Of a DNA stretch of 64,000 nucleotides, positions 10,600 to 19,661 are shown piece after piece. The translations under genes were made by a program, and so were the position numbers. The stretch is from Gemmatimonadota bacterium. Its GTDB lineage: Bacteria > Gemmatimonadota > Gemmatimonadetes > Longimicrobiales > Gaopeijiaceae. Position 1 is the stretch's first letter, and the number at the start of each line of letters is the position of its first letter. The stretch is from positions 2,240,001-2,304,000 of the forward strand of contig JAXHMG010000003.1 in assembly GCA_034521595.1 (NCBI GenBank), in the 5' to 3' direction. The notes below the pieces were generated by a model, which was not told the DNA's origin, ran no database searches, and saw only the letters and a program-made list of their open reading frames with translations.

Positions 10600-11351
10600 C
10601 GGTACTCCGGGTTCGGATGATCGAAACGGCACCCGGCCTCCCAGGCCGAACGCTGATTCCCGTGCGCCGGGATCCCACCTCGTTCCCGTAGCATGAGCGC
10701 CATATGCATCAGGTTCCAGGTCATGAAGGTCGTGTTCCTGTTGGTGAACTCGTTCTCCGGCCCCCCCGACTCCGGGTCGAGATAGGACGGGCCGGGGCCG
10801 GCTTCTCCGATCCAACCGGCGTCGGCCTGAGGAGGTATCACGTAGCCGAGGTGCTGCAACGAGTAGAGGATATTCATCGCGCAGTGCTTGACTCCGTCTT
10901 CGTTTCCGGTGACGAGGCAGCCCGCGACTCGACCGTAGTAGGCATACTGTCCGTGCTCGTTGAGGACGCCCGAGTAGCCGTAGAGCCGCTCGATCACCTT
11001 GCTGCAGACGGACGACTTCTCCCCGAGCCAGATGGGCGTGCCCAGCACCAGGATGTCGGCCGCCATGACCTTCTCTTGAAGCGTGGGCCACGCGTCGCGC
11101 GCCCAACCGTGCTCGGTCATGTCCGGGTAGACGCCGTACGCGATTTCGTGGTCCACGGCGCGTAGAACCTCCACCTCCACCCCTTGCTTGGCCATGATCG
11201 CCCCGGCCGTGTCGATGAGGCCGCGCGTATGGGACGTTCCGGGCGATGGCTTCAGCGTGCAGTTGATGAACAACGCGCGCAGCCCCGAAAAGTCGAGGTC
11301 GTGCGAAGTATGGTCCGAACGGGGCGTTGAAGTGTCTTGGCCACGACTCAT
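10596..11351 (-). CDS. Flavodoxin-like NAD(P)H-dependent FMN reductase family protein
   Basis: FINCTLKPSPGTSHT, ADILVLGTPIWLG, TGNEDG. Confidence 0.85.
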   Translation of the reverse strand: MSRGQDTSTPRSDHTSHDLDFSGLRALFINCTLKPSPGTSHTRGLIDTAGAIMAKQGVEVEVLRAVDHEIAYGVYPDMTEHGWARDAWPTLQEKVMAADILVLGTPIWLGEKSSVCSKVIERLYGYSGVLNEHGQYAYYGRVAGCLVTGNEDGVKHCAMNILYSLQHLGYVIPPQADAGWIGEAGPGPSYLDPESGGPENEFTNRNTTFMTWNLMHMALMLRERGGIPAHGNQRSAWEAGCRFDHPNPEYR

Positions 11352-11412
11352 GGCTGTTTCCTGTCTCGCAGTGGAATGGGACGAGCGACACCGTGCGGCG
11401 CGCCCACGGATG

Positions 11413-11439
11413 AACCGCCGGAGAGGCGTCCGGAGTTCC
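11413..11439 (-). promoter_or_regulatory. SigH/SigR-like ECF promoter of the flavodoxin / MerA-like / CDP-transferase operon
   Basis: Minus strand GGAAC (11439-11435), N19, GTT (11415-11413). Confidence 0.45.
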
Positions 11440-11502
11440 CCGACCCGACACGGGACGTCGCGAAGCTACCCGGCGGCCCGAGCCTCCGACGGCCGAGCTC
11501 CG

Positions 11503-11528
11503 GGAACCCGTCATGCGCTCAGCCGGTT
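11503..11528 (+). promoter_or_regulatory. SigH/SigR-like ECF promoter of the second DUF3179 operon
   Basis: GGAAC (11503-11507), N18, GTT (11526-11528); same GGGAACCC context as the site at 1854. Confidence 0.6.
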
Positions 11529-11594
11529 GGACGATCACAGCACACGGCGATCTCGAATCGCCAAGCATCCTCGCCCAGCCGGAGTCCAGCTTCC

Positions 11595-12707
11595 ATGCAC
11601 GAGCATCGTAGAACCCCGAAGGCCGCGCTCATTGCGACCGGCATCGTCATCGGACTCGGCGCCTGTTCCAGCGAGCCGGCGGTCAGGCCCTCCGGGTCTT
11701 CCCAGGCCCTCGAAGATCTGTCGTGTAGCGTTCCGGAATCGGAGATCTTCGTGGGCGCGTTCAGGGACGGCATCCCGGCGCTCACGGATCCCGAGATGCA
11801 GCTACCCGGATTCGAGGAAACGAGTCTCTGGCAAGATGACGACCGGGTGGTCGGAATGGTCCTCGGTGATCAGCCGATTGCCGTACCGCTCAACATCTTC
11901 TGGTGGCACGAGATCGTGAACCTCGACATGGATGGCTATTCGGTCGCGATCACGCACTGTCCGCTCACCGGTTCGAGTCTCGCATTCGACCGGGAACCTC
12001 AGGGCGGGGTCGAGTTCGGTGTGTCCGGACTTCTGTTCCGTAACAACCTCATGATGTACGACCGGACGGGCGAGAACGAATCGCTCTGGCCCCAGATGTC
12101 CCGCGGTGCGCGCTGCGGCCCGAAGGACGGCCAGGGGCTGGACATGCTCCCGGTCGTGGAGATGACCTACGGCAAGTGGCGGCGCATACACCCGAACACG
12201 CTCGTGGTCACGTCCGAAACCGGCTGGGATAGGGACTACTCATCGAACGGCTATCCGTACCGCGGATACGACGACCGATCGAATCCAGAGCTCCTCTTCC
12301 CGATCTCCGGAGACATCGACACACGCTTCCCACCCAAAGCCAGGGTGCTGGGCGTGCCTGAAGGCACCGGGGGCACGGCGTTTCTCTACTCCGAGCTGAA
12401 CCGCCTGGGAGACCGAGCGGTCGTAACCATGGAATCCGCGAACGAAGACTACGTCGTCTTCTGGGACGAAGAGGCGTGGGGCGCCATGGCATACCATCCG
12501 ACGGTCGACGGACAGCCTCTGACGTTCGAGGTCAGGAGCGAGAAGATCGTCGACGAAGAGACCGGCTCCACCTGGAACATGTCTGGACAGGCGACCGGCG
12601 GCGAGCTCGCCGGAAGTCGGCTCGAGCCGATCGACGAGGCGTACGTCGCCTTCTGGTTCGCATGGCCGCTGTTCCAACCCGACATTCAAGTATGGAGCGC
12701 ATCATGA
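11595..12707 (+). CDS. DUF3179 domain lipoprotein (second paralog, CxxT)
   Basis: Lipobox GLGAC; DGIPALTDP, WWHEIVN, THCPLTGS, LMMYDR, FWFAW. Confidence 0.85.
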   Translation: MHEHRRTPKAALIATGIVIGLGACSSEPAVRPSGSSQALEDLSCSVPESEIFVGAFRDGIPALTDPEMQLPGFEETSLWQDDDRVVGMVLGDQPIAVPLNIFWWHEIVNLDMDGYSVAITHCPLTGSSLAFDREPQGGVEFGVSGLLFRNNLMMYDRTGENESLWPQMSRGARCGPKDGQGLDMLPVVEMTYGKWRRIHPNTLVVTSETGWDRDYSSNGYPYRGYDDRSNPELLFPISGDIDTRFPPKARVLGVPEGTGGTAFLYSELNRLGDRAVVTMESANEDYVVFWDEEAWGAMAYHPTVDGQPLTFEVRSEKIVDEETGSTWNMSGQATGGELAGSRLEPIDEAYVAFWFAWPLFQPDIQVWSAS

Positions 12708-13615
12708 GCAAGAAGCTTGGCAACCGGTTCACCATCGCTGCGAGCATCGTCGCGGCCGCGGCACTCTTCCCGACCACGACCGAGGCCCAAGCGATCTGCA
12801 GCGCACCGCACTCGTCACCCACGCTGAGCGAGAGCGCCTCGATACGGACGTTGCCGTCCGGGGAGGGCTGGGTTCAACTCTCGACATCCTTCACCACGGC
12901 GACGGAATCGTTCAATCCGACCGGGGACCGCCAGGACTTCCTCGGTGGCTCGACGTTCGACACCCGGTCGGCCTTCCTCACCGCCTCGTACGGTGTGACG
13001 CGCGGATTGGAGATTTGGGGCCAGGTCCCGGTTCACCGTCTTCGCACGGAAGGGGGTAACGGAGGTGTGAGCCGCTCCACGGGGCTCGGTGACATCCGGA
13101 CGGCGGTCCGCGTGAGCCCGGCCCTGGTCGGAGTCGAAGCCCCCGTCGCCCTCCGGCTCGGATACAAGCAACCCGGAAGCGACTTCCCGATCGACGCGAC
13201 GGAGCTGCCCCTTACCGAGGGTCAACGCGATGTCGAGGTGAGCGTCGAATCGGGGTGGGCACCGGTTGAGTCGCCCTTCTACGTGTCGGGTTGGGCCGGG
13301 TACCGCTGGCGATCCGAGAACACGGACACCGAGCACCAGCCCGGAGACGAGGTCTTCGCGCACCTGGCCATAGGCGGCACGCTCGGCGTGCTGGGTTGGG
13401 AGCTCGGCGTGGACGGCCTCTGGGGCGGAACTCCCGTGGATCAGGGCCTCCGGCTCTCGAGCCAGGACCGCCAGTTGATACAGATCGTGCCCACGATCGC
13501 CTCGTTCGTCGGGCCGGGGAATCTCGAGATCACGGCTCCGATCCCGGTGTCGGGCCGCAACCTTCCAGCCAGCTACGGGCTGAGCGTCGGATACCGTATC
13601 GGCTGGGGACGGTGA
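12704..13615 (+). CDS. Putative outer-membrane beta-barrel (transporter / MetA-pathway-like)
   Basis: Signal peptide ending AQA; GLGDI motif; alternating amphipathic strands; C-terminal LSVGYRIGW. Confidence 0.6.
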   Translation: MSKKLGNRFTIAASIVAAAALFPTTTEAQAICSAPHSSPTLSESASIRTLPSGEGWVQLSTSFTTATESFNPTGDRQDFLGGSTFDTRSAFLTASYGVTRGLEIWGQVPVHRLRTEGGNGGVSRSTGLGDIRTAVRVSPALVGVEAPVALRLGYKQPGSDFPIDATELPLTEGQRDVEVSVESGWAPVESPFYVSGWAGYRWRSENTDTEHQPGDEVFAHLAIGGTLGVLGWELGVDGLWGGTPVDQGLRLSSQDRQLIQIVPTIASFVGPGNLEITAPIPVSGRNLPASYGLSVGYRIGWGR

Positions 13616-13622
13616 CGAAACG

Positions 13623-14271
13623 ATGAGCGAACGGACCCACACCCACCCTTCTGTCGGCAGGATCCCGGGAGTCGTTGCGCTCCTGGGCGTCCTGTTGCTC
13701 GGGGGGACGACCGTCGGCACGGCGCAGGAGCAGGAGGCGCATCTGGACGGAATCGGACACGAGCTCGGTGATCCCGAGGCGCCAGTCGTTCGTCGTCGAG
13801 TACGGCGACTTCGCCTGTGGGGCTTGTGCCCAGTTCGTCGCCGGAGCTTGGCCCGAGATCCGGGAAAAGTTCATCGAGACCGGCAAGGTCCGCTGGAAGA
13901 CCGTCCCCTTCGAGCTCGGCTTTCCGAACAGCGGAGAAGGAGCGCATGCCGGCGAGTGCGCGGCCGCCCAGGGAATGTTCTGGGAGATGCACGACGCGCT
14001 CTACGAACAGAGAGAGATGTGGGTGGGCGAGCGCGATCCCGAGGACGAGTTGGTTGATTTGGCGGGAACGACGGGGCTCGACGAAGCGCTGTTCCGCAAA
14101 TGTTACCAAGACGAGCACTACGAGGACCGCATCGACGCAGCCAACGACGCGGCGGACACCGACGGAGTCCGGGGAACCCCGACGTTCTACATCAACGGGT
14201 TCCAGGTCCAAGGAGCGCTTCCCATCGACGCCTTCCGAACCTTGCTCGAAGATGCGTCTCCCCGACGCTGA
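13623..14271 (+). CDS. DsbA/BdbD-like thiol-disulfide oxidoreductase; apparent +1 frameshift at ~13790
   Basis: Signal peptide plus LGDPEAPV in one frame joins VVEYGDFACGAC...FWEMHDALY...GVRGTPTFYING in the next. Confidence 0.85.
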
Positions 14272-14665
14272 CGGATCCGCCGGCGCGACCAGCCGGAGCC
14301 GGCCCGCGCTCGCGGCACTGGCGCTGGGGCTCACCGTGCTGGCCTGCTCGAACGGGGCCACGGCGCCACCTCCGGACGGAGGGGCGGATCTCGATGAGGG
14401 AGAGGCCGCTACCCGGGTCGAGGTCATGACCGTCACGGCCGGGGCGGACGGCTCCGCCTCCGTCGGCCTTCCGGAGCATCTGGGCACATCGGAAGCTCCA
14501 CCGAACGTCGTCTGCAGCTATACGCCGGATGGGAAGAAATGGTGGATCGCGTTCGGCGATACTGCCTGTCGCCTCGAACCGGCGGGAGACGGGACGTTGC
14601 GAGTCACGATCGAGGGACTTTCCGAAGGATGGTCGATCCGGATCGAGGTACATCCGCCCGGTTGA
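14252..14665 (+). CDS. Hypothetical lipoprotein
   Basis: Hydrophobic stretch with lipobox VLAC; overlaps the DsbA stop; small beta-rich domain with two more Cys. Confidence 0.55.
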   Translation: MRLPDADGSAGATSRSRPALAALALGLTVLACSNGATAPPPDGGADLDEGEAATRVEVMTVTAGADGSASVGLPEHLGTSEAPPNVVCSYTPDGKKWWIAFGDTACRLEPAGDGTLRVTIEGLSEGWSIRIEVHPPG

Positions 14666-14702
14666 CGATGTCGGCGGGCGCCGACCCCGCTACGGCGTCT
14701 AG

Positions 14703-14930
14703 CAGCCGCGTGCCGGAATCGAACTCGGGGGCAACGTCGCGTTCATCCACAACCAGCTCGACCTCCCGAGGGGCGATGCCGATCTGGAGGAGGTACTCCT
14801 CGGACGCCGCCAGCTCGAGACCAACTTTCAGGCCGGTCTCAGCCTCGGGTTCCGCTACCGCTTCGGCTCGATCTACAACAACATCGCGAACACGCGCTTC
14901 GGCGGAGGTGGGTCGCAGGATCGGTTCTGA
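14703..14930 (+). pseudogene. C-terminal remnant of an outer-membrane beta-barrel protein (no start codon)
   Basis: Manual translation after TAG 14700: ...GIELGGNVAFIHNQLDLPRGDADLEEVLLGRRQLETNFQAGLSLGFRYRFGSIYNNIANTRFGGGGSQDRF*, with gene-like codon usage. Confidence 0.6.
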
Positions 14931-15108
14931 GGCCGCGAACGCTTAGCCATCGAAACGGTCGTGGAGGTAGGTGACGACGGAAACCGGGACCCGAGAGGAT
15001 GAACCGTCGAGAGCCCCGGTTGCGCACGGGCAATCCGTTTCGTCCATTGCGTACCGGCCGCCTCGGCAGCCCTCGCATCCAAGCCTCCCGCTCACGGAGT
15101 GACCGCGC

Positions 15109-15489
15109 ATGAGACCGATGACCTCGATTCTGGCCGTGACCGCCCTGTTCTTCGCCACCGATGATGTTCAGGCGCAGGAGGCGCACGCGAGCGACTACGA
15201 GGCCGAGCTTCGGGAGATGGTCGCCGAGCCCGATCCGGCCGAGCGGGACCGCGAGGTGGTTCGCGACTTCCTGGACCGCTCCGACGTGGCCGACGTCGTC
15301 GCGGAGCACGGGCTCGACCGGGAGCGACTCGAGGCCGGTGTGAGCACCCTCGATGCGGACGCCGCTGCCGATCTCGCCCGCCAGGTACGGAGCATGGGCG
15401 AGGAAGCCGAGCTGGTCGGCGGCAACACCGTCGTGCTGTCCACGAGCACCATCGTCATCATCCTCCTGATCCTCATTCTCGTGACGTGA
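15109..15489 (+). CDS. PA2779-like exported precursor with Gly-Gly motif and hydrophobic C-terminal peptide
   Basis: Signal peptide (VQA/Q), helical acidic body (VRDFLDRSDV...GLD...VSTLD...LARQV), then ELVGG-NTVVLSTSTIVIILLILILVT. Confidence 0.7.
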   Translation: MRPMTSILAVTALFFATDDVQAQEAHASDYEAELREMVAEPDPAERDREVVRDFLDRSDVADVVAEHGLDRERLEAGVSTLDADAAADLARQVRSMGEEAELVGGNTVVLSTSTIVIILLILILVT

Positions 15490-17453
15490 CCGCAGCCGCC
15501 ATCGCCGTCCTGCTGGGCCTTTCGAGTGCCGGACAGCCGGCATGGACGGACGCGCCGGCAGCCGATCACCCCGACGGCGTGGACATCGAGGTGCCGTTCG
15601 TGGCCCAGGGTCCGCTCCTCTGCGGCGGCGCGGCGGCGGCGATGGTGGAACGGTTCTGGGGCGTCCGGGGCGTGTACGGGGAAGACTTCCGCCATCTCGT
15701 CCGGGAGGACGAGGGAGGGATCCGGGCGTCGGAGCTGACCACGGCGCTGGAGCAGCGCGGGTACGACGTGCACGTCTCGCAGGCACGGCCGGACCGGATC
15801 CTGGCGGGGCTGGAAGACGGGATCCCGCCGATCCTCCTTCTGGAGTCGGGCGCCACCCGTCTGCACTACGTCGTTCTCGTAGGGCTGGACGACGAGGTCG
15901 CCTGGATCCACGACCCGAACTTCGGGCCCTCGCAGGAGATCGCGCGGGACGAGCTGCTCCGGCGTTGGCGTGCGTCCGGGTTCTGGGCCGCCCACGTGGT
16001 GCCGTCGCGCTCGGCGCCCGACGAAACGGACCCGTCACGCCCGTCACCTCGCGCCCGAAGCCTGGACCCACTCGCGGACGCCGCGGCCGAATCGGCCATG
16101 GAGCGGATCCGCTCCGGCGATTTCGAAGAGGCACGCGCCACGGCCGGCACGCTGATGTCGGCGGGGGAGGACGAGGCCGCGCTCGGCCGGCGCCTGCGGG
16201 CCACCGCCTGGTTTCTGGAAGGGGAGCGGACCCGCGCCCTGGAAGAGTGGAACGTCCTGGGCGAGCCCACCCTGGATCTGGTGCGTATTCGCGGGATGGA
16301 GCACACCCGCTACCAGGTCGCCGAGCGCCGCTTGTCGCTCGAGTACGGCGACGTGCTCACCCCCGCGTCCCTCGCATTGGCACGGCGCCGGCTCGAGGCT
16401 CTCCCATCCGTCGCGGCGTCCCGCGTCGACTACCGTCCCGTGGTGGACGGCACGGTGGAGATCGACGCAGCCGTCCTGGAGCGCGCTCGCGTGCCCGGAT
16501 ACGCGACGTTGGCGGCCCAGGTGCCGCGGGGACTTCTGAACCAGCGGACAGCCCTCGAGGTCGGGCCTCTGCTGGCCGGAGGCGACCGCTGGCGGGTCTC
16601 CGGAAGCTGGGCGCCCGCACAACGTTACGTCGGAGGATCGATGTCCGCTCCGGCCCCTCCGTTGCCCGGGATCGCGGCCGTGCGCATGGAGTGGCGCCGG
16701 GAGCGGTTCGCGACCTCGGGTGGCGGGGCGAGCTCGCCCACGGAGACGGAGTATCGGTTTCGGGGCGCGCTGGAGCTCCAGGAGTGGATGCATCGTCGTC
16801 TGCGTCTCGGCGCGAGCCTGGCCCTCGAATCCTGGGACGTCCCGGCCTGGACCGTGGATGCCGCGCACGCTCCGCTGCGTCTCCTGAACGCGGGACTCCA
16901 GGCCACCGTGGCGAATCCCGACGGCCCCACGTGGCTCACCGCGCGGGGAGAGGGCTGGATGGGCTCCGGACATTCGTTCGCTCGGACGAGCCTGGAGGCT
17001 GGGACGAGCGTTCCGCAGGGTGCGCGGCGGGAGTGGCGCCTCCGTGCGGGCGGGACCGCGGTGACCCGCCGGGCGCCGCGCATGATCTGGCCGGGCGCAG
17101 GAGCCGGTCGTACGCGCGCCCCTCTGCTCCGCGCGCACCGCCTGATCGAGGACGACGTGATCCAGGGACCGGCGTTCGGGCGAGCGCTTCTGCACGCGAC
17201 CGCCGAGCACCGGATCTTCGGCCGGGTCGGCCCCGTCCGCATGGGCGGGAGCCTGTTCGTCGATGCCGTCCACGCGGGATCTCGGGCACACGGAGCCGAC
17301 AGTCGGGGCTTCGTAGACGTCGGCCTGGGAGTCTTCGTCGATGCGGGATCCGACGAGGTCACGGTGAGCCTCGCGCGGGGCTCCTCGGGATGGCACCTCT
17401 CCGCACAGGTCGAGGAACGATTTCCAACGGGACTCGGCCCGCAGCCGAACTGA
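15486..17453 (+). CDS. C39-like cysteine peptidase fused to TPR-like, POTRA-like and Omp85-like beta-barrel regions
   Basis: VPFVAQGPLLCGGAAAAMV (Gln/Cys), LHYVVLVG (His), IHDPN (Asp); POTRA-like VRIRGMEHTR...LARRRLEALP...VLER; barrel-like LLRAH and LFVDA...VGLGV. GTGA overlap with the precursor gene. Confidence 0.75.
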   Translation: MTAAAIAVLLGLSSAGQPAWTDAPAADHPDGVDIEVPFVAQGPLLCGGAAAAMVERFWGVRGVYGEDFRHLVREDEGGIRASELTTALEQRGYDVHVSQARPDRILAGLEDGIPPILLLESGATRLHYVVLVGLDDEVAWIHDPNFGPSQEIARDELLRRWRASGFWAAHVVPSRSAPDETDPSRPSPRARSLDPLADAAAESAMERIRSGDFEEARATAGTLMSAGEDEAALGRRLRATAWFLEGERTRALEEWNVLGEPTLDLVRIRGMEHTRYQVAERRLSLEYGDVLTPASLALARRRLEALPSVAASRVDYRPVVDGTVEIDAAVLERARVPGYATLAAQVPRGLLNQRTALEVGPLLAGGDRWRVSGSWAPAQRYVGGSMSAPAPPLPGIAAVRMEWRRERFATSGGGASSPTETEYRFRGALELQEWMHRRLRLGASLALESWDVPAWTVDAAHAPLRLLNAGLQATVANPDGPTWLTARGEGWMGSGHSFARTSLEAGTSVPQGARREWRLRAGGTAVTRRAPRMIWPGAGAGRTRAPLLRAHRLIEDDVIQGPAFGRALLHATAEHRIFGRVGPVRMGGSLFVDAVHAGSRAHGADSRGFVDVGLGVFVDAGSDEVTVSLARGSSGWHLSAQVEERFPTGLGPQPN

Positions 17454-17494
17454 CACGGGATCCTCCTTCGGTCGCTTGGCTCGGCCTCGGGCTG

Positions 17495-18799
17495 CTAGAG
17501 CAGGCCGGCGAGCATCGTGGCGATCCCCAGGAAGCTCGCGAACCCGACGATGTCGGTGACGGTCGTCAGCACGATCGAGGACGACTGCGCGGGGTCCTGC
17601 CCGAGCATCGTCAGCATCGTGGGGATGAGCACCCCCGCGATTCCCGCGGCCACCATGGACAGCACCATCGAGACACCGATCACCAGCGCGAGCCCCACCG
17701 ATCGGCTCCAGACGTAGACACCGGCGGCGGTGGTGAGCGACACGGCCACCCCATTCAGCAGCCCGACCGTCGCCTCCTTGCGCAAGAGCCGCGGCCATTG
17801 ACCGATGCGGATCTCCCGCATGGCCAGCCCGCGCATCGTAACGGCCAGCGCCTGCGCGCCCGTGTTACCCGACTGCCCCGCCACGACGGGCAGCAGCACG
17901 GCGAGCGCGGTGAAGCGCGCGATGGTGTCCTCGAAGATCCCGACCACGGATGCGGCCAGGAACGCCGTCACGAGGTTGATTTCGAGCCAAGGCAGGCGCT
18001 TCTTGACCGCGAACAACACCGGTGACAGCGCGCGCTCCTGTCGGCTGGCGCCCACCATGGTCTGCATATCGGCGGCGACGTCCTCCTGCGCCGTCAGGGC
18101 AAGGGTATCGGCGCGGATGACGCCGAGCAGACGCCCCTCGAAATCCACCACCGGCAGGCTCGAAAGCCGCCTCTTGCTGAAGTGCTCGACGACCTCCTCC
18201 TGAGGATCGATCGCCTGCACCGCGACCGCAGGCTGGGCGAGCGTCTCCACGACCGCGTCGGATGAGGCGGCGGCCAGTGCTTGCAGCGGAACGGTTCCCG
18301 TCAGGCGTCGCTCCGAATCGATCAGGAAGACGTCGGCGACTCGGCGCTTCCGCACGGCACGCAGGCGGTCGAGCGCCTGTTGCACCGTGGTTCCCGGGGC
18401 GAGACCGATCGCGCGCGGGTCCATGAGCCGTCCCGCCGTTTCGGGCGGGTAGTCGGCCATCATCCGCAGCTCGCGGGCGAGCGAGGGGGCGAGGCGGTCG
18501 AGCAACGCGGCCCGCGCCGCTTCGTCCATCCAACCGAGCACGGAGACGGCTCGGACGGGGTCCATCGTGGCCACGACATCACGCCGGGAGTCTTCCGAGA
18601 GCGCGCCGAGAACGTCCACGGCGAGGTGCGGAGGCAGGTGCTCCAGCAGAGGAACGGCGTGTCGCGTGGGCTCGGTGCTCAGAACGCCCGCGATCTCGTG
18701 CGCCGGAAGCTCGTCGAGGCGGTCCGCCGCCTCCTCGGGAAACTCGCGGATGAAGGTCCCCGCCAACTCTTGAAACCCCGCGGGTGGCTCATTCCGCAT
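17495..18799 (-). CDS. mgtE: Magnesium transporter MgtE
   Basis: MgtE_N, YPPETAGRLM, CBS pair, KRLPWLEINL, GQSGNTGAQ, DPAQSS...TTVTDIVG. Confidence 0.93.
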   Translation of the reverse strand: MRNEPPAGFQELAGTFIREFPEEAADRLDELPAHEIAGVLSTEPTRHAVPLLEHLPPHLAVDVLGALSEDSRRDVVATMDPVRAVSVLGWMDEAARAALLDRLAPSLARELRMMADYPPETAGRLMDPRAIGLAPGTTVQQALDRLRAVRKRRVADVFLIDSERRLTGTVPLQALAAASSDAVVETLAQPAVAVQAIDPQEEVVEHFSKRRLSSLPVVDFEGRLLGVIRADTLALTAQEDVAADMQTMVGASRQERALSPVLFAVKKRLPWLEINLVTAFLAASVVGIFEDTIARFTALAVLLPVVAGQSGNTGAQALAVTMRGLAMREIRIGQWPRLLRKEATVGLLNGVAVSLTTAAGVYVWSRSVGLALVIGVSMVLSMVAAGIAGVLIPTMLTMLGQDPAQSSSIVLTTVTDIVGFASFLGIATMLAGLL

Positions 18800-19661
18800 G
18801 CGTCACCTCGTCTCCCGATTCGATAGGGCGGTCGAGACCCCGGCCGACGGACGCCGTCCCGGAGATGGCAGCGACGATCCCGGTGGTTCCGAGTTGGAAG
18901 ATCTCCGCGAGCGCCTTCGCGGTGAGCCGCGCAGAATCGCCCCCCTGGTCGGGAGCTTGCCTTTCGAGCTTGCGCAACACCTGGTAGCGGATGGCGCCCA
19001 CCAGCCGATCCTCGTCGTCGACGACCGGCATGGCATGGTAGCGCTGCCAGCCGGGGTGCTCCCGCACGATCGCGGCCGGCAGCCACGCGCTGAGGCGATC
19101 GACGTCGCGGTGCATGACGGCGCTGACCGGATCGCGCGCCCGGGCCAGCATCAGCTCGGGAATGTCGAGCACGCCGACGAGCCGGTTGTCGCGGTCGACG
19201 ACGTAGAGATAGTAGAGGAGATCCCGAGCGGCCCGACCGAGGCGGACGCGCGCATCCGCCACGAGCACGTCGTGGGGGAGCCGGAAGATCGTCGGGTCCA
19301 TCACCGCGCCGGCGGTGCCCTCGAGGTAGGAAAGCACGCGCGTGATCGGCTCGCGTACGTCCGCGGGAAGACCGGCCAACAGAGGCTCACGCCACGCGGC
19401 CCCGAGCCCCCGCACGATCGCGCCCGCTTCGTTCGCGGTCAGCTCCGCGACGATCGCGGCCCCGTCCGGAACCGAAAGATGCTCGAGACAATCGGATGCG
19501 CTCGGCACCGTCATTTCGCGCAGCACCGCCGCGGCCGAAGGCTCCGGAACGGCACGCAATACCGTAGCGGCCGTCGGCGCCGGCATCTGCTCGAGCTTCC
19601 GTGCGGCCCGACGAGGGTGCGACTCCAGGAACGCGCGGGCGAGGAGGTCGACCCCGATCAC
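18789..19661 (-). CDS. MgtE intracellular N-domain plus CBS-pair protein (no full transport domain)
   Basis: Helical repeats, YLEGTAGAVM, YLYVVDRDNRLVG, MPVVDDEDRLVG. Confidence 0.8.
   Translation of the reverse strand: MIGVDLLARAFLESHPRRAARKLEQMPAPTAATVLRAVPEPSAAAVLREMTVPSASDCLEHLSVPDGAAIVAELTANEAGAIVRGLGAAWREPLLAGLPADVREPITRVLSYLEGTAGAVMDPTIFRLPHDVLVADARVRLGRAARDLLYYLYVVDRDNRLVGVLDIPELMLARARDPVSAVMHRDVDRLSAWLPAAIVREHPGWQRYHAMPVVDDEDRLVGAIRYQVLRKLERQAPDQGGDSARLTAKALAEIFQLGTTGIVAAISGTASVGRGLDRPIESGDEVTHAE

Follow-up and report, generated by a model that had tools for sequence, protein, structure and literature searches.

C39 peptidases carry a catalytic Cys and His, together with an Asp and an oxyanion Gln, and the described members that come nearest to the present case are the peptidase domains of ComA, LahT, and PCAT1 and the periplasmic FapD. 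Omp85 proteins form barrels in the outer membrane and, to our knowledge, all those studied assemble or translocate proteins, except PlpD, which anchors a lipase. The two meet in a single chain encoded at positions 15109-17453 of a 64,000-nucleotide stretch of DNA from a Gemmatimonadota bacterium (assembly GCA_034521595.1, contig JAXHMG010000003.1, positions 2,240,001 to 2,304,000), which will be called the window in this report. There, a gene for a small putative precursor (open reading frame 1, ORF1) is followed by a gene (ORF2) whose product consists of a C39 domain, a TPR-like domain, one POTRA, and an Omp85-type beta-barrel. The feature is real and conserved, and is a variant on the PA2778/PA2779 pair and on PlpD-like Omp85 proteins. 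In the reading that we favor, and that we hold to be somewhat probable, ORF2 would sit in the outer membrane and capture its partner on the TPR-POTRA region, and the C39 domain, in the periplasm, would cut the partner off its hydrophobic tail.

Comparison with Described Systems

In gene organization, the nearest described system is the PA2778/PA2779 pair of Pseudomonas (NCBIfam NF033920 and NF033919; DUF6627). It shares with the locus the gene order, in which the gene for a small exported protein, with a small-small motif before a hydrophobic tail, comes ahead of that for a protein made of C39 and TPR domains. It differs in that ORF2 is longer by about 400 residues, which make up the POTRA and the Omp85 barrel. 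This kinship had been proposed in an initial annotation of the window and is borne out by NCBIfam matches for both genes (E 4.3e-9 for ORF1 and 8e-8 for ORF2), both scoring below the family cut-offs. ORF1 reaches 36.6 bits against NF033919, with a cut-off of 40, over model positions 14-109 of 123, which makes membership a near miss on score, and the anatomy is common to both; its match to Pfam DUF6627 has an E value of 0.007. ORF2 reaches 32 bits against NF033920 (PA2778 family cysteine peptidase), with a cut-off of 150, over positions 4-219 of 255. When NF033920 was run on the genomes of 21 relatives, none of the 21 gave a match over the cut-off and the matches seen were mostly to TPRs; the control genomes were without Pseudomonas. 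No paper on what the pair does was returned by literature searches under PA2778/PA2779, DUF6627, or the names of the NCBIfam families.

The type Vd proteins PlpD and FplA resemble ORF2 in combining, within a single chain, an N-terminal enzyme with one POTRA and a C-terminal Omp85 barrel. They differ in their enzyme, which is a patatin lipase instead of a C39 peptidase, and ORF2 has in addition a TPR domain and a dedicated partner gene; the PlpD barrel is absent from the matches in the PDB, and a Pfam search of ORF2 gave no patatin match, so that by its passenger ORF2 does not belong to the PlpD family. Hanson et al. (PMC11116518) place the enzyme domain of PlpD in the periplasm, and because of this location the PlpD barrel is taken to act as a scaffold.

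A periplasmic C39 peptidase that works with an outer-membrane barrel has a precedent in the functional amyloid system of Pseudomonas. As described in passages of Rouse et al. (PMC5557850), FapD is a Sec-exported C39 peptidase, active in the periplasm, with an unknown substrate, and secretion through FapF depends on its Cys. FapD and FapF are separate proteins, unlike the fusion found here, and FapF is a trimeric 12-stranded barrel and not an Omp85 protein. The NCBIfam model C39_FapD had no match to ORF2 at E<=1.

ComA, LahT, and PCAT1 have a homologous C39 domain with the same Gln, Cys, His, and Asp, and act on substrates in which Gly-Gly comes after an amphipathic helix and position -4 is hydrophobic. 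ORF2 differs from them in lacking an ATP-binding cassette (ABC) domain, of which neither Pfam nor the AlphaFold2 (AF2) model gave any sign, and a transmembrane-helix domain, and in being predicted to be periplasmic instead of cytoplasmic; the NCBIfam models for peptidase-containing ABC transporters (PCATs) gave 11-15 bits on ORF2, against cut-offs of 500-853. The substrates also differ, as here a 21-residue tail and not a bacteriocin follows Gly-Gly, the leader side is a folded and conserved stretch of 80 residues, and there is one substrate per enzyme. TamA and BamA are the best structural matches of ORF2 and share with it a POTRA directly before the barrel and a long loop with a conserved Arg; they differ in sequence (12-15% identity), in having three or five POTRAs versus one, and in lacking the helix in the place of beta-1 as well as the N-terminal protease and TPR domain.

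Literature searches found no paper on a C39-TPR-POTRA-Omp85 architecture. The survey by Heinz and Lithgow (PMC4104836), in the portions available, lists ten Omp85 subfamilies, including fusions to patatin, WD40, and "metalloprotease" domains but none to C39, and neither "peptidase" nor "C39" turned up in a term search of its main text, although its supplements, which cover the domain architectures of 12,869 Omp85 proteins, may list the combination. The statement of the initial annotation that it knew of no description of the architecture stands for the literature searched, and is tempered by the precedents of FapD/FapF and PlpD cited above.

Architecture of the Gene Pair

The features of the pair, all on the forward strand of the window, are as follows.

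15109-15489 (stop included), +, ORF1, PA2779-like partner or precursor, 126 amino acids (aa), from the ORF list, NCBIfam, and Pfam
15109-15174, +, putative Sec signal peptide of ORF1, residues 1-22, ending between VQA and QE, by inspection
15175-15417, +, acidic helical body of ORF1, residues 23-103, with a leader-like helix just before Gly-Gly
15418-15423, +, Gly104-Gly105 within ELVGG, proposed cleavage site
15424-15486, +, hydrophobic C-terminal tail of ORF1, 21 aa, NTVVLSTSTIVIILLILILVT, grand average of hydropathy 2.40
15486-17453 (stop included), +, ORF2, C39-TPR-POTRA-Omp85 fusion, 655 aa, single copy in its own genome
15486-15557, +, putative signal peptide or hydrophobic N-terminus of ORF2, residues 1-24, by inspection, predicted local distance difference test score (pLDDT) 48-59
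15573-16010, +, C39 double-glycine peptidase domain, residues 30-175 (Q41, C46, H127, D143)
16065-16256, +, TPR-like helical domain (two TPRs), residues 194-257, from AF2 and profile
16269-16481, +, single POTRA, residues 262-332, from the beta-alpha-alpha-beta-beta order in AF2
16500-16541, +, amphipathic helix, residues 339-352, between the POTRA and the first modeled strand, from DSSP of the AF2 model, pLDDT 87-93
16545-17417, +, Omp85-type beta-barrel, residues 354-644, with a long, L6-like, 36-residue loop at 527-562

The two genes overlap, with the GTG start of ORF2 at 15486 running into the TGA stop of ORF1 at 15487-15489 to give GTGA, which confirms the two-gene pair seen in the initial annotation. 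The rest of what that annotation had read from the sequence is also found, namely the Sec signal (judged by inspection), acidic helical body, ELVGG motif, and 21-residue hydrophobic tail of ORF1, and the intact Cys/His/Asp triad, TPR-like and POTRA-like segments, and barrel-like C-terminus of ORF2.

ORF1 occurs once in its genome and has 13 close homologs. By inspection, an n-h-c pattern with A-x-A before a Gln is common to the 72 homologs listed. The body, of 81 residues, contains 24 Asp or Glu versus 9 Lys or Arg and has an isoelectric point of 4.20. AF2, given a 70-sequence alignment, models ORF1 with a pLDDT of 69.6 and places body helices at 28-37, 43-55, 58-66, 71-79, and 83-101, followed by a hinge at 104-108 with pLDDT <50 that lies between two helices, the second being the tail helix at 112-125. 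A fold search with this model returned at best a generic helical bundle with Z 9.2, below the noise bar for helical proteins. A reading of the tail as a beta-hairpin or amyloid segment was considered and dropped, as the tail has no turn and no Q/N repeats and AF2 models it as a helix; the tails of the split systems described below, which resemble ordinary membrane helices, also count against it.

ORF2 is modeled by AF2 with a pLDDT of 90.7 and a predicted template modeling score of 0.88. Its homologs have comparable hydrophobic N-termini, and the aligned rows shown contain no lipobox Cys. The C39 assignment rests on Pfam matches above the cut-offs (31.6 bits versus 22 for Peptidase_C39, PF03412, and 28.9 versus 24 for Peptidase_C39_2, PF13529), and a PF03412 search of the organism's own genome recovers ORF2 at 35.4 bits. 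An alignment of 75 full-length homologs has C46, H127, and D143 in every sequence and Q41 in 98%. A search of PDB sequences with the family profile returned consensus TPR proteins at E 2.4e-35, as well as the ComA, LahT, and PCAT1 peptidase domains (E 1.2e-9, 1.4e-5, and 1.5e-3), and neither BamA nor TamA. A soft linker separates the C39 domain from the TPR-like helices, modeled at 195-210, 213-223, 228-244, and 248-257, and the POTRA, which adjoins the barrel N-terminally, aligns with POTRA3 of TamA and gives a weak match to a BamA model over residues 266-333 (E 0.17).

The assignment of the barrel comes from structure. Foldseek gives TamA (E 3.4e-13) and BamA (E 8.8e-13) as top matches of the ORF2 model. 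In VIA alignments, residues 261-648 superpose on POTRA3 plus barrel of TamA (4c00) with Z 23.0 and a root-mean-square deviation (rmsd) of 4.8 over 349 residues, and on the barrel-only TamA 8us4 with Z 22.9 and an rmsd of 3.6 over 272 of 306 residues; BamA follows with Z 22.5, FhaC with 20.3, and CdiB with 19.9. Pfam PF01103 (Omp85/Bac_surface_Ag) had no match to ORF2 at E<=1, and a precomputed match to it is recorded for 2 of 102 ORF2 homologs. All 75 homologs have L548, R549, and F591, and 98% have D593; L548-R549 belongs to LLRAH in the long loop, and F591-x-D593 stands on the second strand after it. We take these residues to sit where the (V/I)RG(F/Y) motif of L6 and the (F/G)xDxG motif of beta-13 are found in Omp85 proteins, in variant forms.

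The barrel of the Omp85 superfamily has 16 strands, and L6 follows beta-11. DSSP finds 15 long strands in the AF2 model of ORF2, with the long loop after the tenth; where beta-1 would be expected, the model has the helix at 339-352. Strand directions counted from the loop put residue 353 outside, and for this reason residues 333-353 must cross the membrane at the beta-1 place. The family-averaged hydrophobic moment of the helix is 0.84 at 100 degrees versus 0.66 at 170, a helical periodicity unlike that of the barrel strands. This helix may act as a plug or belong to the seam of the barrel, or it may be an artifact of modeling.

Family Size and Conservation of the Pairing

A word-index search found 102 full-length relatives of ORF2, an exhaustive search of representatives at 50% identity gave 1,168 matches at E<=1e-3 and 274 at E<=1e-30, and a genome scan confirmed 373 relatives among 413 pattern matches. 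Given these 274 representatives and 373 genomic relatives, the architecture lies far beyond chance. The 80 loci kept for study comprise 34 from Acidobacteriota, 28 from Gemmatimonadota, 3 each from Krumholzibacteriota and Eisenbacteria, 3 delta-proteobacterial or Polyangiaceae loci, 1 from Rhodothermales, and 4 labeled, by binning, as Fibrobacteraceae or Bifidobacteriaceae. Presence is patchy: 8 of the 21 nearest genomes (own genome included) and 8 of 151 genomes in a phylum sample have the family, both tallies taking in the unpublished genome G013, which has no match, and a genome of the same genus, 98% complete, gave no match to the ORF2 family. A search for short relatives produced 28 matches, most of them on short contigs and for this reason likely fragments, while a few on long contigs (P0263, P0264, and P0285) look real.

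Some copies appear broken or odd. The one at G064:C2:327347-329368 matches in three pieces, the partner at L106 is split over two frames, and in G582 (L128) the profile matches 5-184 and 222-670 within one 641-aa frame, skipping 185-221.

The pairing of the two genes is conserved. With a hidden Markov model of the precursor, a same-strand ORF ending at the peptidase start was found in 79/79 loci with upstream DNA (own locus included), and two further loci fall outside this count as they begin inside the peptidase gene. Gly-Gly and a hydrophobic tail are present in the upstream ORF at 77 of the 79, in keeping with the co-occurrence of precursor and peptidase asserted in the initial annotation; as for the two exceptions, L030 has AGA, and at L022 the match lies inside the peptidase's own open frame with no tail visible. 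No other neighbor is shared, the next commonest cluster occurring at 9 of the 80 loci. In the organism's own genome, which has one copy of each gene, ORF1 adjoins the only C39 gene.

The motif itself was counted in 73 precursors with a callable start, of which 72 have Gly-Gly. In the 70-sequence alignment, G104 is invariant and G105 is conserved in at least 90%. Leu stands at -4 in 58/72 and Ala or Val at -3 in 64/72 of the precursors, and residues of the set LIVMF occupy -4 in 86%, -8 in 51%, -15 in 51%, and -18 in 72% of the 72 sequences, so that the ORF1 site looks like a C39 site by its sequence. In the 72 homologs the tail is 21-26 residues long (median 23), and Ile, Leu, Val, and Thr make up 78% of its residues, in a pattern of V/I at +4 to +6, S/T at +7 to +10, and I/L/V from +11 to the end. 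Lys or Arg is found within the last four tail residues in 17/72 and Asp or Glu in 14/72.

Forms without the Protease, with a Separate Protease, or without the Barrel

Relatives in which the domains are differently assorted were also found, and these sister forms, together with the covariation of the motif with the protease, are new here. The lead was genome G010, which matched only profile positions 170-669. With C39-less defined as a profile match that starts at position 170 or later, sister pairs were obtained in which a TPR-POTRA-barrel gene is preceded by a PA2779-like gene. Nine such loci have upstream DNA, eight in Gemmatimonadota (L089, from G010, L091-L096, and L112) and one in Acidobacteriota (L127). 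All nine partners keep the hydrophobic tail and only one has Gly-Gly (L092, SGGS); the others read MGS, LGT, or ALGS or have no glycine. The same search returned 14 C39-bearing loci, all 14 with Gly-Gly partners; these were not added to the first sample, and several are apparently the same loci, with identical partner tails (e.g., L100 and L066). In five C39-less genomes searched, 92-97% complete, there was no match to the C39 domain of ORF2, and PF03412 found nothing in two of four C39-less genomes and a marginal partial match on another contig in the other two. The absence of Gly-Gly from 8 of the 9 C39-less partners supports the view that Gly-Gly is the probable target of the C39 domain.

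Of 301 acidobacterial genomes sampled, 46 gave a match (a tally that includes the unpublished G463), and many of them have a split form, in which a stand-alone C39 gene (about 190 aa) immediately precedes the gene for TPR, POTRA, and barrel (about 600 aa; L113-L126). Thirteen same-strand loci and one divergent locus were fetched. Partners were seen upstream of the C39 gene at 8 of the 13, with Gly-Gly in one and Ala-Gly in seven (FAAG, FQAG, VAGA, and EAAG), and they have a longer polar spacer before the tail. The barrel, too, can be absent. Four unfused C39-TPR genes (350-398 aa) were fetched, two of which (L131 and L132) have partners, both reading QAAG; P0264 is such a relative at 62.8 bits. 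The core of partner and TPR is therefore found both with and without the protease, and both with and without the barrel. The C39-less and split forms further indicate that the small-small motif travels with the protease and that the partner-barrel unit can stand alone.

A quick tree of the shared region was built from 56 rows, namely 34 of the 93 fused sequences (subsampled), 14 split, and 8 C39-less, two partial C39-less barrels having been dropped. A branch with a Shimodaira-Hasegawa-like approximate likelihood ratio support of 95 sets the fused sequences apart, the split ones form one group (support 99), and the C39-less state needs two changes; as the tree is unrooted, it does not decide between gain and loss of C39. 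Within the fused clade, Gemmatimonadota appear in at least three separate groups among Acidobacteriota, Krumholzibacteriota, Eisenbacteria, and Rhodothermales. This interleaving, together with the patchy presence among genomes, indicates horizontal spread.

In the ESM Atlas, too, there are TPR-POTRA-barrel clusters that lack C39; one such cluster has 709 members, mostly from Acidobacteriota. At L089 (3540-5707) and at L111, the C39-less pair is followed by a gene for MlaE, which contains a STAS domain, and one for an ABC ATPase; MlaE/MlaF was rejected as a part of the system, as it was found at 2 of 125 loci only, which are close kin.

Predicted Docking of the Partner

ORF2 residues 25-655 and ORF1 residues 23-126 were co-folded, each with its own alignment. 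The interaction prediction score from aligned errors (ipSAE) was 0.67 (0.68, 0.67, and 0.65 in individual runs) versus 0.01 for the best control, at least 82% of the contacts were common to the runs, and the pLDDT of the partner was 70-74. In the calibration of the method, the mark was reached by 58 of 80 solved complexes and by 2 of 110 mismatched pairs, a relation that holds only roughly with custom alignments. The body of the partner is predicted to dock on the TPR-POTRA region, the confident interface joining ORF2 residues 193-251 (TPR) and 269-339 (POTRA and junction) with ORF1 residues 26-42 and 68-83; the POTRA residues involved are 269-272, 311-322, and 329-332. Neither Gly-Gly nor the tail, the C39 active site, or the barrel appears in the confident interface; residues not named in it are uncertain. 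The initial annotation had proposed a co-fold to see whether Gly-Gly docks at the catalytic Cys; in the model Gly-Gly is not confidently at Cys46, and it is the body, on TPR-POTRA, that is placed instead.

Proposed Mechanism and Alternatives

In the mechanism that we favor, ORF1 would be exported by Sec and held by its C-terminal hydrophobic helix, and its helical body would dock on the TPR-POTRA platform of ORF2. The C39 domain would then cut the flexible Leu-x-Gly-Gly hinge between body and tail and thereby free an acidic body of about 82 residues from the 21-residue tail. The barrel would serve as anchor or scaffold, as in PlpD, and proteolysis would be a release or maturation step added over a core of partner and TPR (-POTRA-barrel).

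Several points weigh against this mechanism. We infer cleavage for every member of the family, as we do the periplasmic compartment, the membrane in which the tail sits, and what becomes of body and tail after the cut, and the signal peptides of both ORFs were judged by eye. The co-fold places neither Gly-Gly nor the tail at Cys46 with confidence. The C39-less loci come from one Gemmatimonadota family (8 loci) and from Acidobacteriota (1 locus), and with so few lineages about two events underlie the covariation between motif and protease. No partner was found near 5 of the 13 split loci, the closely related L113-L117, in a search that covered same-strand tail-bearing ORFs of at least 50 aa whose end lies between 900 bases upstream of the C39 gene's start and 120 bases beyond it, or whose start lies between 150 bases ahead of the barrel gene's end and 700 bases beyond that end. 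The location of the tail raises a further difficulty. With only about 22 residues between them, a body docked at the outer membrane and a tail in the inner membrane are hardly possible together, and the predicted contacts of the docked body reach POTRA residues 329-339, beside the barrel. As the C39-less pairs keep the tail permanently, the tail must suit the barrel complex, which suggests that a tail at the outer membrane fits these pairs better than a plain inner-membrane anchor does. Nor does the tail have the cluster of basic residues that stop-transfer and sorting anchors usually carry, with the Lys or Arg near its end confined to the 17 of 72 homologs counted above.

The model of the initial annotation, in which the barrel exports the body or inserts the tail after a periplasmic cut at Gly-Gly, by analogy with PCATs and two-partner secretion, is one that we regard as rather unlikely. 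In its favor, the barrel appears to keep Omp85 hallmarks (the L6-like loop, L548-R549, and F591/D593), and the translocators FhaC and CdiB, with the Z scores given above, align with it nearly as well as TamA does. The partner is predicted to dock on the POTRA beside the barrel, where Omp85 clients bind; the helix at 339-352 could be a plug; and retention of the tail by the C39-less pairs is what would be expected if the barrel handled it. FapD/FapF, in the passages of Rouse et al. (PMC5557850), likewise offers a periplasmic C39 peptidase needed for secretion through an outer-membrane barrel. Yet the confident interface includes no barrel residue, PA2778-type C39-TPR proteins with a partner exist without any barrel and show that processing needs none, and PlpD, in the work of Hanson et al. 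(PMC11116518), gives a precedent for an Omp85 barrel as a mere anchor. Moreover, conservation of the body follows that of the barrel protein one-to-one, as expected of a subunit, and is not of the variable kind seen in cargo. The picture drawn in the initial annotation holds in part: its domains, kinship, co-occurrence, and barrel stand, while docking of Gly-Gly at Cys46 did not come out with confidence. The idea of a simple outer-membrane PCAT is a poor fit, as the C39-less pairs and the barrel-less C39-TPR genes present proteolysis and barrel as separable add-ons.

A related and still less probable idea is that the tail is the client of the barrel, which, with an amphipathic helix modeled at its beta-1 position, would put the tail into or against the outer membrane after capture of the body on TPR-POTRA, the C39 domain being a built-in release protease. 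If so, this would be a dedicated Omp85 protein for a tail-anchored, non-barrel protein; the C39-less sisters would keep the anchor permanently, and in the split systems the protease would have been recruited as a separate gene.

Cleavage may also not occur at all. The partner would then be a stable subunit or regulator, Gly-Gly a helix-breaking hinge, and the C39 domain would act elsewhere or be regulated or occluded by the partner. The confident interface between body and TPR-POTRA, with no confident contact at the active site, agrees with such a complex, and the C39-less pairs are examples of one that exists without proteolysis. We think this doubtful, however, as Gly-Gly or Ala-Gly tracks the presence of C39, the Leu at -4 and small residue at -3 fit a double-glycine site, and the sole protein of this kind in the genome adjoins its sole C39 gene. 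Lastly, transport of a C39-TPR passenger to the surface by its own POTRA-barrel, in the manner of a type Vd autotransporter, is suggested by the domain order of PlpD/FplA and by older literature that treats that passenger as secreted (in passages of PMC4104836), but is very improbable, as the enzyme domain of PlpD was later found to be periplasmic (PMC11116518), the partner, exported by Sec and predicted to bind TPR and POTRA together, lacks an evident way of reaching the surface, and POTRAs are periplasmic in all Omp85 proteins studied.

Implications

A large branch of Omp85 proteins with a double-glycine protease and a one-to-one partner, spanning Gemmatimonadota, Acidobacteriota, Krumholzibacteriota, Eisenbacteria, and others, would widen the scaffold roles known for this superfamily. 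The uncharacterized PA2778/PA2779 pair gains a concrete candidate function that can be tested, namely Gly-Gly cleavage beside a membrane tail. The natural series of fused systems, split systems, C39-less systems with a partner devoid of Gly-Gly, and barrel-less systems provides ready comparisons for the purpose of the cut, and if the tail resides in the outer membrane, it would represent a new way of anchoring proteins there.

Genomic Surroundings

A scan of positions 14500-17800 for sigma-70 promoters and terminators gave 0 sites of either. For sigma-54, the best score in the region before ORF1 (14858-15108) was 5/12 against the consensus, i.e., no site, and the closest relatives (L002-L004) score 7-8 and also have none. 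Elsewhere in the family, a sigma-54-like GG-N10-GC element (at least 9/12, same consensus) lies within 250 nucleotides upstream of the precursor start at 32 of 71 loci (e.g., L007, L008, L013, L014, and L053), whereas reverse complements gave 4 of 71 and random sequence windows 34 of 660.

Upstream of the pair, at 11337-14271 on the forward strand, are envelope genes, for a DUF3179 protein, an outer-membrane channel resembling that of the MetA pathway, and a DsbA-like thioredoxin, which are not conserved beside the pair elsewhere. Downstream, at 17495-19661 on the reverse strand, the gene for a full-length, 434-aa MgtE (MgtE_N, CBS, and MgtE domains) overlaps an upstream 290-aa gene by 11 bases, and the MgtE genes are not shared with the other loci; the product of the 290-aa gene has MgtE_N and CBS only and looks like a stand-alone cytoplasmic sensor half.

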